A DNA stretch of 11,732 nucleotides from a virus (IMGVR_UViG_2548876857_000009); one strand, 5' to 3'; positions 169-11,732 are shown, counted from the first letter of the stretch. The notes: generated by a model not told the origin, from the letters alone. A program made the numbers and translations.

Positions 169-240
169 TGGAGCACCTGTGTTGTTCTGAGGTGAGCATA
201 TCACCTCTGTTCAGGTGGCCAAATTCAGTGTGCCACTACA
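1..240 (-). mobile_element. Left end of an IS911-like (IS3 family) insertion sequence; only ~240 bp lie in the window and the element continues past the window start
   Basis: Minus strand read from ~240 gives TGTAGTGGCACACTGAATTTGGCCACCTGAACAGAGG..., a TG-initiated terminal repeat as in IS3-family ends, followed ~70 nt later by the orfA start. I recognise the terminus and the OrfA N-terminus as IS911 from memory; not database-verified. Confidence 0.8.
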
Positions 241-1415
241 AAGTAAGCCCACCACTGCATCATCGGACGACGTTGCTCAAGGTAATCACTGCGGTTGTAA
301 GCGCGACGTACCTCATTTTTGTCTACATGAGCCAGTGCTGCTTCAATGACATCAGGCGGGAATCCTTCCTCATTGAGTGCCGTACTAGCGATAGAGCGTA
401 AACCGTGTGATACGAGTACGCCTCCTAAGCCAGCACGCTTAAGTGCGGCATTAACTGTTTGGCTGTTCATTGGCTGGGTTGGTTTGATGCGACTGGGAAA
501 GATAAACTCTCGGCCACCACTGAGTGACTTCATCATTTCCAGAATAGAAAGAGCCTCATCCGATAGTGGAACCGTATGGTCTCGGTTCATCTTCATACGA
601 GCTGCTGGAATTTTCCATTCTTTAGCACTGAAATCGATCTCATCCCATCGTGCCTCAGCGGCTTCGGCAGGGCGGGTAATGGTGAGAAGCTGCCACATGA
701 ACAAGCACCGCGTTGACATACTGATACTTGCTGTACGCATTGTTTGCATTAACTGTGGAAGCTGATCCGGACGGATACTCGGCATGTTTTTCTTTTGCGG
801 TTTCTCGAACGCTTTTCCGATATTTACACTGGGAACTGCATCAATCAGGCCTGTGTTCTGCGCATAAATCATGACTTCGTTAATACGCTGACAAAGGCGG
901 CGAACAGTCTCTAATGCACCTCTGGCCTGAACCGGCTGAACAGCTTTAACCAGAGTATGAGCCTAAATCTCAGTGACGCTGATATCACCGATTGCTGGGA
1001 AAACATCTCTCTCAAGCGAGCGCCAGATATCGTCGGCATAGTCCTCTGTTACGCTGGCTTTCTTCACATTCCACCAACGCTCGGCAACTAACAAGAAGGT
1101 GTTGGTTTTGGCCTCTTGAGAATTCCTCACCTGTTCTTTCTGGTGTTCCTGAGGATCAATATCTTTTGCCAACAAAACTCGAGATTCAGCTCTGAGTTTA
1201 CGCGCATGAGAAAGGGAGACAGCAGGGTAGGCACCGAAGCTCTGCTTGGTTCGCTGTTTGGTTAGAGGCCGATAGTAACGGAACTGCCAGAGCTTACTAC
1301 CGCTGGACTTTATTAACAGGGTCAGCCCATCACCATCATAAAGCTGGTAATCGGCATCTTTAGGTTTGGCGGCTTTGATTTCCGTATCGGTTAACGGCTT
1401 GGTTTTTCTTGCCAT
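225..1415 (-). pseudogene. int: P4-type tyrosine integrase, disrupted by an in-frame TAG at 963-965 and by replacement of its C-terminal end with the IS911 terminus
   Basis: ORF-track ORFs 963..1451 and 225..872 are in the same minus-strand frame, separated only by one TAG. Joined, they align end to end with the intact integrase at 10521..11732 (MARKTKPLTDTEIKA vs MARTTRPLTNTEVLRA, and HGLRSIASTALNEEGFPPDVIEAALAHVDKNEVRRAYNRS in both). Start taken at the ATG at 1413-1415, preceded by GGAG. The last ~5 codons and stop (225-242) fall inside the IS terminus. Confidence 0.8.
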
Positions 1416-1434
1416 GGGGAGTCTCCATGCGTTT

Positions 1435-1471
1435 AGGCCCAACGAAAACAATAGAGCTTTTCGTTGGGCCT
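1435..1471. repeat. Perfect 14-bp inverted repeat (AGGCCCAACGAAAA / TTTTCGTTGGGCCT) with 9-nt spacer, ~20 nt upstream of the int pseudogene start
   Basis: Read directly from the sequence; function unknown (possible operator or 5'-UTR hairpin). Confidence 0.5.
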
Positions 1472-1535
1472 ATCAATGGGCCTAAAAGGTTCGGATTTAA
1501 TTAGTTCTCTTCGGACTTCGCGGGACAAATTGAAG

Positions 1536-1572
1536 ACACAAAAAAGCCCGCAGGGCTTGTGCCGTGCGGGCT
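1536..1572 (-). terminator. Rho-independent terminator on the minus strand
   Basis: 8-bp GC-rich stem AGCCCGCA/TGCGGGCT (1545-1552 and 1565-1572) with 12-nt loop, followed on the minus strand by UUUUUGUGU. It lies downstream of the alpha-crr transcript and of the tRNA-3'-end-like segment. Confidence 0.6.
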
Positions 1573-1618
1573 CTTAGGACTTCATCGGATGACTCTGGTA
1601 ATCACCGATGGAGAATTT

Positions 1619-9384: not shown

Positions 9385-10269
9385 ATGGATTGGAATGTTT
9401 TTTTTAGTACTATTAGCCAGACGTCAGGTGCAATTGTCGGAATATTTTCAGCATTTCTAATAACTAAGATAATATCTAATCAGTCTGATTTTTCAAGAAT
9501 GAAGGAACGAGTGTCCTTTCTTATTAATAAGTCTAAAGCCTTGAGTTTAGAAGCGAACTCTAGATATTTTGATTGGTATAATAGACGAACGCGAGAGCGA
9601 GAATTGGATAAGTTAAAGGGTATGTTTGATGAAAGTGATGAGTTTTTATCCGCAGAGGAATATTATGAGAGGCTTGATTTTTCGCCGTTTGAATTAAGAG
9701 ATGATGTCTTGGTGTACATACGCAATGCTATTGAGGCGCGTAAAGAGGAAGAACAAAGAAAGATAGGTTATTACGGGATTATGCCCACTTTAAGAATGCC
9801 TGTAAGTATCTTGAGTAATGATGTCCAGGAAGAGTTCGAACTTATTGATGCTCTCAAAGTTAGGATTCTAGCAAATATAAATGACATTATTTATGTCCAT
9901 GACGAGATTGTAAAAGAAAAGTATGGTAAAAATCTGATAACAATCTCGATTGTTGCATCATCCCTTTTATTTATATTGGGCGTTATTTATCCGCTTAGTT
10001 TTATCCCTAAAGCTATTGGTGAAGACATTAACATTACTTTTATGGCATTTTTTGATGTTTTGTTTTCTATTAAAGGTTTTTTTCTTTCTTTGCTTGCCAT
10101 TGTTTTTTTGAGTTTGATGTTAGCATTTCTATATATTAACATAACACTGCGATTTGAGAGTGAGGTAATATCAGAACTTGAATTCTATATGAATATAAGT
10201 GCCTATTCTGAATACTTTGGAAACGAGTATAAAAATAGTGTCCATTTAAAAGAGATGTCCGTGCAATGA
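9385..10269 (+). CDS. Hypothetical 294-aa multi-pass membrane protein (hotspot cargo); candidate defence or abortive-infection effector
   Basis: ATG at 9385 after GGGGGGAGA. One N-terminal hydrophobic helix (WNVFFSTISQTSGAIVGIFSAFLITKII), a ~180-aa charged, probably helical domain, then two or three C-terminal hydrophobic helices (ITISIVASSLLFILGVIYPLSF; FMAFFDVLFSIKGFFLSLLAIVFLSLMLAFLYI). Strongly AT-rich codon usage unlike the backbone. No motif I can assign. Confidence 0.7.
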   Translation: MDWNVFFSTISQTSGAIVGIFSAFLITKIISNQSDFSRMKERVSFLINKSKALSLEANSRYFDWYNRRTRERELDKLKGMFDESDEFLSAEEYYERLDFSPFELRDDVLVYIRNAIEARKEEEQRKIGYYGIMPTLRMPVSILSNDVQEEFELIDALKVRILANINDIIYVHDEIVKEKYGKNLITISIVASSLLFILGVIYPLSFIPKAIGEDINITFMAFFDVLFSIKGFFLSLLAIVFLSLMLAFLYINITLRFESEVISELEFYMNISAYSEYFGNEYKNSVHLKEMSVQ

Positions 10270-10302
10270 ATTTATTGAGGCCATTTCTTGGCCTCAATAA
10301 AT
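10270..10302. repeat. Perfect 13-bp palindrome (ATTTATTGAGGCC / GGCCTCAATAAAT) with 7-nt spacer between convergent genes
   Basis: Read directly. It starts one nt after the membrane-protein stop. The T-rich and A-rich flanks are on the wrong sides for a classical intrinsic terminator. Confidence 0.5.
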
Positions 10303-10319
10303 GCTAAAGAGAGACGATT

Positions 10320-10493
10320 TTAAGGTATTTTTATTCCAACCTTAAGCTCTTCGTTGTCTCTGAATTTTTCAAGTGATTCTCGTAAATAGATAGTTTGAAT
10401 ATCTGTGGGGATGAATTTTATCGCCATTCCGTCAAGGCATGTTTTTATATATTTACTAACGTCTTCAATATATTGATGGTGGTTATTTGACAT
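10320..10493 (-). CDS. Hypothetical 57-aa protein immediately downstream of int (not in the ORF track, below its size cut-off)
   Basis: Minus-strand ATG at 10491-10493 preceded by AGGAG at 6-nt spacing, 27 nt after the int stop. Translates MSNNHHQYIEDVSKYIKTCLDGMAIKFIPTDIQTIYLRESLEKFRDNEELKVGIKIP. AT-rich like the neighbouring cargo gene. Confidence 0.35.
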   Translation of the reverse strand: MSNNHHQYIEDVSKYIKTCLDGMAIKFIPTDIQTIYLRESLEKFRDNEELKVGIKIP

Positions 10494-10520
10494 TTAAAAC
10501 TCCTTTGCCGTGCAATATTT

Positions 10521-11732
10521 TTAAATCGCTTGCATGAGGAGGTGGCGATTGTGCACAAATTCCCCCCACCAATTCATCAAGTCTATACGTTGTTCTAGGT
10601 AAGTTGAACGATTGTATGCTCTGCGAACTTCATTTTTATCACTGTGAGCAAGTGCCGCTTCAATTACGTCCGGATTAAAACCAGCTTCATTTAGCGCGGT
10701 ACTTGCTATAGAACGTAATCCATGAGCAACAAGCTTCCCACCATAACCAATGCGCTTAAGTGCAGCATTAGCAGTCTGGCTATTCATTGGTTGTTTAGGA
10801 TCATTCCTACTTGGAAAAATATGTTCACGATGAGCACTGATTGGCTTCATCACTTCCAGAATCTCTAATGCCTGAGAAGACAGTGGGACAATATGCTTGC
10901 GTTTCGCCTTCATCCGTTCGGCTGGAATCGTCCAGAACTTTGAATCGAGATCGATCTCTGCCCACCGAGCACCGGAGGCCTCAGAAGGGCGCACAATGGT
11001 CAGGAGTTGCCATTCAATTAGACAGCGAGTCGGAACAGACAGATTAGACATAACCAAAGAACGCATCAGCTTTGGTAATTCTTCTGGCCGGAGCGTCGGC
11101 ATGTTTTGCTTTTTAGGTTTCTCAAAAGCCATCCCAATACCTGATGCTGGATTGGCATCAATCAGACCAGTGTTTACGGCATAAATCATTATCTCATTAA
11201 TGCGCTGCACCAGACGACGTACCGTCTCTAGCGCCCCACGTGCTTTGATTGGCTCAAGGGCTTCAACAAGTGTTCGGGCTTTGATTTGCTGAACTGGGAT
11301 CTCACCGATGGCAGGGAATACATCTTTTTCTAGTGAACGCCAAATGTCTTTCGCGTAATCAGGGGTAACGCTTTTGCTTTTAAGCTGGAACCAGTTAGCG
11401 GCGACTGTTGAAAAAATACTGTCCAGTGCGATTTGCTGCTGTTCCTCTGCAATTTCAGCTTGAATTTGCGGGTCAATTCCGTTGGCTAACAAGGAAAGGT
11501 AATCCGCTCTTAACCGTCGGGCGTCAGCAAGTGAAAGGGCGGGGAAGGCACCTAGCCCCATCATTGTTCGCTGCTTTGTTGCTGGACGTTGATAACGGAA
11601 ACGCCATAACTTCTTACCGTTCGTTTTAACGAGCAGAAAAAGACCATCGCCATCATGCAATGTTAGATCCTTTTCTAACGCTTTAGCGCGCAGAACTTCT
11701 GTGTTGGTCAGGGGGCGTGTCGTTCTTGCCAC
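10521..11732 (-). CDS. int: P4-type tyrosine integrase, apparently intact
   Basis: 403 aa with the conserved C-terminal catalytic region (HGLRSIASTALNEAGFNPDVIEAALAHSDKNEVRRAYNRS). The first codon is GTG at 11730-11732, exactly at the window edge and aligned with the Met of the other integrase copy; the true start could lie beyond the window. Confidence 0.85.
   Translation of the reverse strand: MARTTRPLTNTEVLRAKALEKDLTLHDGDGLFLLVKTNGKKLWRFRYQRPATKQRTMMGLGAFPALSLADARRLRADYLSLLANGIDPQIQAEIAEEQQQIALDSIFSTVAANWFQLKSKSVTPDYAKDIWRSLEKDVFPAIGEIPVQQIKARTLVEALEPIKARGALETVRRLVQRINEIMIYAVNTGLIDANPASGIGMAFEKPKKQNMPTLRPEELPKLMRSLVMSNLSVPTRCLIEWQLLTIVRPSEASGARWAEIDLDSKFWTIPAERMKAKRKHIVPLSSQALEILEVMKPISAHREHIFPSRNDPKQPMNSQTANAALKRIGYGGKLVAHGLRSIASTALNEAGFNPDVIEAALAHSDKNEVRRAYNRSTYLEQRIDLMNWWGEFVHNRHLLMQAI

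Follow-up and report, generated by a model that had tools for sequence, protein, structure and literature searches.

A P4-type satellite beside an intA remnant: probable head-to-tail accretion of integrative elements at ssrA

Two integrase genes and the region between them

We analyzed a viral DNA stretch of 11,732 nucleotides (nt), IMGVR_UViG_2548876857_000009 (hereafter, the window), in which a first-pass annotation had recognized two P4-type integrase genes that bracket one P4-like satellite genome. ORF (open reading frame), Pfam, Rfam and motif searches agreed with this description and with the gene order given. The anatomy is directly observed: the left integrase gene (225-1415, minus strand) is interrupted, the right integrase gene (10521-11732, minus strand) is intact, and a complete P4-like genome lies in between. 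From left to right, the window carries the end of an IS911-like insertion sequence (IS), the left integrase gene, an attachment (att)-like site and crr, the P4 gene set, the cohesive-end site cos, a hotspot and the right integrase gene. The window was 100% identical to the 10.9 kb compared from contig AIAY01000114.1 (GCA_000446525.2), and because this contig begins inside the IS911 copy, the left edge of the window is an assembly break. ARAGORN found no transfer RNA (tRNA) or transfer-messenger RNA (tmRNA) gene in the window; the tmRNA gene is absent because the window stops at the start codon of the right-hand integrase. The features outside the satellite backbone are as follows.

1-240, minus strand: left end of an IS911-like element of the IS3 family; orfA, with its start codon at 168, continues past the window edge
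225-1415, minus strand: pseudogene of an IntA-type (CP4-57 family) tyrosine integrase, assigned by translation, Pfam and identity to IntA
1416-1618, minus strand: att arm of the IntA element on its int side, with near identity to the spacer between intA and ssrA in K-12
1619-1640, no strand assigned: hybrid att junction with a displaced ssrA 3'-end fragment, from alignment with K-12, FORC 064, Z1323PEC0014 and RM14723
1641-1780, no strand assigned: crr-side att arm of the satellite, between the junction and the start of P4 homology at 1781
9133-10520, no strand assigned: variable hotspot in place of P4 gop, beta and cII (tblastn)
10521-11732, minus strand: intact, predicted ssrA-specific satellite integrase of 403 amino acids (aa; Pfam), with its start codon at the right edge of the window

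Arm-DNA-bind_3, Phage_int_M and Phage_integrase domains were present in both integrases (Pfam), the HxxR and C-terminal RRAY motifs were visible in both when they were aligned, and P4 Int was 35-37% identical in aa to both over nearly the full length. By domain set and by similarity to P4 Int, both are P4-type tyrosine integrases. The left and right proteins aligned colinearly and without gaps at 63-64% aa identity (about 67% at the nt level), a divergence that supports the view, already taken in the first-pass annotation, that they are old paralogs and not the products of a recent duplication. The shared domain architecture and the gap-free alignment would also suit a left copy that had been duplicated locally from the satellite integrase and had then decayed. 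However, the identities refute this explanation, to which we give almost no credence: left and right are only 63% identical in aa, whereas the left copy, its upstream arm included, is 92.7% identical in nt to K-12 intA.

The identity of the left gene was directly observed in comparisons with intact alleles. Its protein was 95.9% identical to that of K-12 intA and 99.7% identical to the intact, 413-aa IntA of strain SC477, which makes the left gene an IntA allele, IntA being the integrase of CP4-57, a cryptic element of K-12. The frame comprises 396 codons and contains one in-frame TAG at 963-965, a nonsense codon that represents a single AAG-to-TAG change (position 965). The last codons and the stop codon lie inside the IS911-like end, which terminates at about 238-240 and is ~93% identical to the left end of K-12 IS911A. 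IS911 follows codon 393, and IS911-like sequence replaces the ~20 final codons of intA; consistently, the identity of the window to intact intA loci ends at 237/238. The intA fragment that bears the TAG and is cut by the IS was widespread, being present in 129 blocks of the collection. Among complete E. coli genomes, 489 had an integrase of the IntA type.

Upstream of the pseudogene, positions 1400-1624 matched the K-12 intA-ssrA spacer almost base for base. This IntA arm contains a promoter-like site at 1448-1476 (promoter scan) and three copies of TGGGCCTA at 1434-1484 (0.26 expected), which are candidate arm-type sites. A terminator scan placed a hairpin with a T-run at 1544-1558; this hairpin would terminate ssrA where the IntA element abuts that gene. 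Neither the window nor the sister loci showed any P4 gene fragment left of 1619, where the window holds only the integrase gene and IS911. Further, CP4-57-type cargo (alpA, yfjI/DUF3987 and yfjJ of the Gp2 family) and a distal att site were absent from the left remnant. With IntA dead and the distal att lost, the left remnant is probably immobile.

The target gene and the hybrid junction

Beyond the satellite integrase gene, ssrA was annotated in five related loci (FORC 064, Z1323PEC0014, Z1323HEC0423, NCTC8623 and strain 98206), with smpB next to it, and the integrase gene lay ~184 nt from the ssrA 3' end in all five. Where an identical Int protein was encoded, smpB was adjacent in 10 of the 10 places listed, and a sequence scan placed the ssrA 3' end 184 nt before the int start. 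The int-ssrA junction occurred in 400 of 5426 complete Escherichia coli genomes (~7%). Read from these related loci, the target of the satellite is in all probability ssrA, the tmRNA gene, ~184 nt past the right end of the window. The tmRNA gene in these loci is thus to the right of the right-hand integrase, not to the left of the IS911 insertion. The satellite extends from 1619 to the ssrA 3' end.

The opposite boundary is the att-like site. The sequence TGGTGGGCTGGCGGAGTTTGAA at 1619-1640 corresponds, in degenerate form, to the reverse complement of the ssrA 3' end; ungapped searches found no second att copy elsewhere in the window. Its first six bases, TGGTGG (1619-1624), are a remnant of the last 7 nt of tmRNA and probably mark the zone of the crossover. 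Past TGGTGG, K-12 runs into ssrA (AGCTGGCGGGAGTTGAACCCGCG), whereas the window runs on as GCTGGCGGAGTTTGAATAAATAT, which is the crr-side satellite sequence in every genome examined, regardless of the left neighbor. Satellite homology across E. coli genomes begins at 1618-1625. The crr-side arm contains exact CGTATACC repeats at 1694 and 1706 (1694-1713), which are candidate arm-type sites for the satellite integrase, and in FORC 064 the stretch from the satellite int start to ssrA has four copies of CGTATACC, three of them exact and the fourth with a mismatch. The two integrases differ in repeat type: TGGGCCTA accompanies IntA, and both arms of the satellite carry CGTATACC. Because an IntA-element arm stands on its left and a satellite arm on its right, 1619-1640 is a hybrid junction, a directly observed feature that six complete genomes share with the window.

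The att copy at 1619-1640, the only one in the window, lies between the two integrases and places them in different units; the intact right-hand integrase accordingly belongs to the complete satellite, as had been proposed from the gene order. We also considered a single composite mobile unit, that is, a satellite with a spare integrase, since the two integrases are co-oriented and 9 kb apart and the hybrid junction is common to the six complete genomes. Such a unit is highly improbable. The att copy separates the integrases, the homology of the satellite across genomes starts only at the junction, and each part is found without the other: the satellite occurs without a second integrase in strain 98206 and beside other neighbors elsewhere, and the intA remnant occurs without the satellite in RM14723 and beside a prophage in another contig.

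The position of the crossover was assessed by comparing the junctions of the window and of loci L001, L002, L004, L009, L010, L018, L019 and L021-L028, together with the K-12 junction (L003, 23470-23487). The displaced remnant of the last 7 nt of ssrA varied among loci and read TGGTGGA, TGGTGG, TGGT, TGG or TG. Further, the complement of tmRNA U357 was missing in most displaced ssrA copies, including the distal att of K-12 CP4-57. Excision of CP4-57 is known to cause the loss of U357 (ssrA delta-T357), which inactivates tmRNA (PMC10107115). Because of the variable junctions and this published outcome, we infer that the crossover falls within the last ~7 nt of ssrA, with no finer position assigned. 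A crossover strictly inside TGGTGG, drawn from RM14723, was dropped, since junctions occur with or without an extra A and with shorter remnants.

Related loci and the build-up of the array

An empty site was directly observed in RM14723, in which the same IS911 insertion interrupts intA at the same position and intA lies directly against ssrA, with no satellite. Across window positions 200-1624, RM14723 differed by one base only, at position 965 (AAG there, TAG in the window). The two sequences diverge from 1625, and from there onward the window is satellite-derived.

An earlier state of the locus is shown by SC477. In that strain, a small CP4-57-like island (a Gp2-family gene, a split DUF3987 gene and a helix-turn-helix gene) comes after intact intA and is followed by an IS3-family element and, past the latter, by a C-terminal fragment of the integrase of the EspC pathogenicity island and by espC. 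We compared five loci with intact IntA (K-12, SC477, 537-20, ETEC6335 and Eco_24-2013). None of the five had annotated psu, sid, delta or alpha. AlpA, DUF3987/YfjI and Gp2-family cargo was present in four (K-12, SC477, 537-20 and ETEC6335); CP4-57-type cargo was missing from Eco_24-2013, which had a hypothetical gene, an int fragment and an IS3 copy instead. The cos sequence was absent from K-12 and SC477, the two intact-IntA loci searched.

These comparisons bear on whether the left integrase is the vestige of a second P4-like satellite, in which case the locus would be a true tandem satellite array, as the first-pass annotation had it. The left gene does encode a P4-type integrase, and neighboring elements with their own integrases and pseudogenized tandem elements have been noted in a survey of P4-like satellites (PMC8628076). 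Further, integrase modules move: the satellite Int itself is 63% identical to IntA and only 37% to P4 Int. However, the intact-IntA loci lack annotated satellite genes in five cases out of five and carry CP4-57-type cargo in four, neither of the two searched has cos, and P4 gene fragments are absent left of 1619 in the window and in the sister loci. In particular, the SC477 copy, at 99.7% aa identity and in the same position and EspC-island context, has CP4-57-like cargo. A second satellite is thus unlikely. The proposal that the left pseudogene belonged to another element integrated in tandem at the same site holds, whereas its assignment to a satellite is not supported, given that the gene is an IntA (CP4-57) allele whose relatives carry island cargo. 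The array is better described as a satellite apparently stacked on an island remnant, and in relatives also on the EspC island, than as a tandem satellite array.

We favor sequential head-to-tail accretion of integrative elements at the ssrA 3' end, to which we assign a probability of roughly 0.85. The order of events in this scheme is inferred. First, a CP4-57-type island with IntA would have lain directly against ssrA, stacked in relatives on the EspC pathogenicity island. An IS911-like element would then have clipped the 3' end of intA, and the cargo of the island would have been lost. Next, a P4 satellite with an ssrA-specific int/att module would have entered ssrA beside the IS911-cut remnant, its Int joining attP to the final ~7 nt of ssrA (TCCACCA) by recombination. 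The int-side arm of the satellite would now supply the sequence and the terminator downstream of ssrA; a near-identical hairpin is present in both arms, that of IntA and that on the int side of the satellite. The old junction with the IntA arm would have been pushed 10 kb away, leaving the hybrid att at 1619-1640. The AAG-to-TAG nonsense mutation in intA would complete the series.

Several points weigh against this scheme. Since the window goes no further than the int start codon, ssrA itself lies outside it, and the crossover position comes from junction comparisons. The TAG mutation may have preceded or followed the entry of the satellite. The cargo of the remnant is gone, so the type of element rests on relatives, and because integrase and att modules are exchangeable between element types, an IntA-bearing satellite is unlikely rather than impossible. 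Further, the satellite Int belongs to the IntA clade and not to the P4 Int clade.

Z1323PEC0014 and several draft contigs were in the same state as the window and carried, past IS911, a C-terminal fragment of the EspC-island integrase gene, IS debris, espC and espG. The fragment was 78% identical in nt to the left integrase gene and 100% identical to the EspC-island integrase gene of Z1323HEC0423. The sister genomes thus hold a third P4-type integrase gene past IS911, the EspC island's own, which gives three integrases in series at ssrA. Copies of the EspC-island integrase gene were located in the sister loci as follows.

L002, 6174-6988
L004, 8926-10144
L021, 10358-10969

In Z1323HEC0423, the IntA layer was absent and an IS100 copy stood between the EspC-island integrase gene and the satellite. 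Strain 98206 carries the satellite of the window without any second integrase. No further displaced ssrA fragment was found beyond the array in 9.6-17.4 kb of Z1323PEC0014, RM14723 and SC477.

The occupant on the ssrA side of the remnant differed among genomes. Beside the TAG-bearing, IS911-cut intA remnant stood P4-like satellites whose hotspot or hotspot/int modules were of at least three kinds (L023, L025, L027 and L028). In the metagenomic contig ERZ27278363 k141_1655 (L026, 7924-10771), the remnant adjoined a prophage with an unrelated 390-aa integrase (Arm-DNA-bind_2), and this prophage junction keeps a longer ssrA-like fragment. Together, these loci suggest that, within one lineage, the ssrA-proximal slot changes its occupant rapidly.

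Among known elements at ssrA, CP4-57 of K-12 is the closest to the left part of the window. In addition to the similarity of the integrases, the arm and the terminator hairpin are as in the K-12 intA-ssrA spacer, and the displaced ssrA fragment of the window, TGGTGGGCTGGCGGAGT, is identical to the distal att of CP4-57. In contrast to CP4-57, the window keeps only the integrase gene, with its nonsense codon and IS911 truncation, and the arm, which no longer abuts ssrA; alpA, yfjI and the other cargo genes are absent.

The Islander collection lists 125 arrays with two or more elements, 4 arrays with three or more, and ssrA as the most enriched target (PMC4383910). The locus resembles those arrays in its head-to-tail elements, in the position of the newest one beside the intact gene and in the displaced tDNA fragments between units. 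It differs from them in that the inner unit is an integrase pseudogene whose own distal tDNA fragment was not found in the flanks of three relatives. Islander asks of every member an integrase gene and a displaced tDNA fragment of its own, correctly oriented. The satellite has an integrase and a fragment at 1619-1640, whereas the remnant offers just an integrase pseudogene; strictly applied, the Islander scheme would count one complete island only.

The EspC pathogenicity island of enteropathogenic E. coli (EPEC) also sits at ssrA (PMC7545054), and the genes past IS911 in the sister genomes match it. This island is outside the window, and in the genome of the window the link to it is broken by the assembly gap in IS911.

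The locus is thus a case of the ordinary, already documented stacking of mobile elements at a chromosomal hot spot. It illustrates how ssrA accumulates layers of elements and leaves the current understanding unchanged. For annotation, the left integrase gene is to be labeled an intA (CP4-57-type) pseudogene rather than a second satellite. Only the uncharacterized hotspot genes and the variable displaced ssrA ends that lack the U357 complement may merit further study.

A further idea, which we regard as doubtful, is that the ssrA-proximal slot is a rapidly re-used docking site whose occupants possibly hold tmRNA hostage. It is drawn from the turnover of the slot, the empty site of RM14723 (a sister genome without the TAG change but otherwise alike), the variable remnants and the missing U357 complement. 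If the satellite, like CP4-57, damaged ssrA on excision, its induction would shut down trans-translation, and selection would then either act against cured cells or favor those that regain an element.

Satellite backbone and hotspot

From crr (1781) to cos (9113), the right-hand unit was 97.4% identical in nt to phage P4, and tblastn with P4 proteins recovered alpha, orf106, orf151, epsilon, orf88, sid, delta and psu at P4 lengths and 97.7-100% aa identity. The features of this region are as follows.

1781-2080, plus strand: crr, the cis replication region, with two 120-nt direct repeats and TGTTCACC iterons, in agreement with the P4 annotation
2135-4468, minus strand: alpha primase-helicase, 777 aa, 99.1% aa identity to P4; Pfam Zn_Ribbon_Prim, Toprim, D5_N and Pox_D5
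4483-4803, minus strand: orf106, 100% aa identity to P4
4939-5394, minus strand: orf151, 98.7% aa identity to P4
5387-5674, minus strand: epsilon, 97.9% aa identity to P4
5667-6520, minus strand: immunity/early region, including a homolog of the "cI ORF" (Rfam and P4 protein comparison)
5919-6006, minus strand: CI RNA (Rfam C4, above the gathering score)
6105-6195, minus strand: isrK/a1b1 target elements (Rfam isrK and c4-a1b1, above the gathering score)
6254-6520, minus strand: orf88 of the AlpA/Vis family, 97.7% aa identity to P4; Pfam Phage_AlpA
6799-6902, no strand assigned: ori iterons, five copies of TGTTCACC (motif search and P4 ori annotation)
7072-7806, plus strand: sid, first gene of the late operon (7072-8949), 99.2% aa identity to P4
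7803-8303, plus strand: delta, late operon, 98.2% aa identity to P4; Pfam Ogr_Delta
8377-8949, plus strand: psu, late operon, 99.5% aa identity to P4; Pfam Psu
9114-9132, plus strand: cos, the 19-nt P2/P4 cohesive end, an exact match (0.01 expected by chance)

A terminator of alpha was called at 2101-2118 (terminator scan). The TGTTCACC iteron had 10 matches in the window (0.4 expected), every one of them within crr or ori. The cos sequence occurred once in each of the six satellite-bearing loci searched and, as noted above, in neither of the CP4-57-type loci. By sequence match, this cos is compatible with packaging by a P2-type terminase. The core set of P4-like satellites comprises int, psu, delta, sid, alpA, epsilon and alpha (Moura de Sousa & Rocha), and all seven components were present in the right-hand unit, in P4 order between int and alpha. 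Judged by its gene content, the right-hand unit is therefore a complete P4-type satellite, with a P4 backbone and a swapped hotspot, integrase and att module. Since both att arms, Int and the AlpA/Vis homolog are retained, the satellite should still be excisable.

P4 integrates at a leucine tRNA gene. The satellite resembles P4 (X51522 / NC_001609) in crr, the ori iterons, the CI RNA region, the exact cos and the order cos, hotspot, int, att and crr. The P4 layout on which the first-pass annotation had relied is likewise borne out by the P4 record, in which cos and the hotspot are followed by int, by attP ~150 nt upstream of int (a 20-nt attP core is annotated) and by crr ~200 nt further. In contrast to P4, the satellite probably targets ssrA and not the leucine tRNA gene, its integrase is only 37% identical, and other hotspot genes replace gop, beta and cII, for which tblastn gave no match in the window. 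Further, the att region at 1619-1780 bears no relation to P4 attP, and the 160 bases from att to crr have no P4 counterpart. The locus can serve as a worked example of a P4 backbone gaining a new integration specificity via a hotspot/int/att swap.

Two ORFs were called in the hotspot.

9386-10269, plus strand: AT-rich ORF of 294 aa, whose two ends look hydrophobic by eye
10320-10493, minus strand: convergent ORF of 57 aa (gene call)

Pfam, PADLOC and PHROG scans returned nothing for either ORF. The pair recurs alongside the satellite integrase in many E. coli genomes and is a candidate uncharacterized anti-phage system.

Z1323PEC0014 was 98.5% identical to the window from IS911 to cos and then carried a different hotspot, and its integrase was 79% identical in nt and 86% in aa (segments compared past cos: window 9139-11732 and L002 17138-20022). 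This difference reflects either a hotspot-int exchange between satellites or independent integrations beside one remnant.

The immunity region (5667-6200), in which the cI ORF overlaps the CI RNA and its targets, was only 82% identical in aa to P4, compared with at least 97.7% for the other backbone proteins. The diverged cI-ORF region may confer a different immunity specificity.

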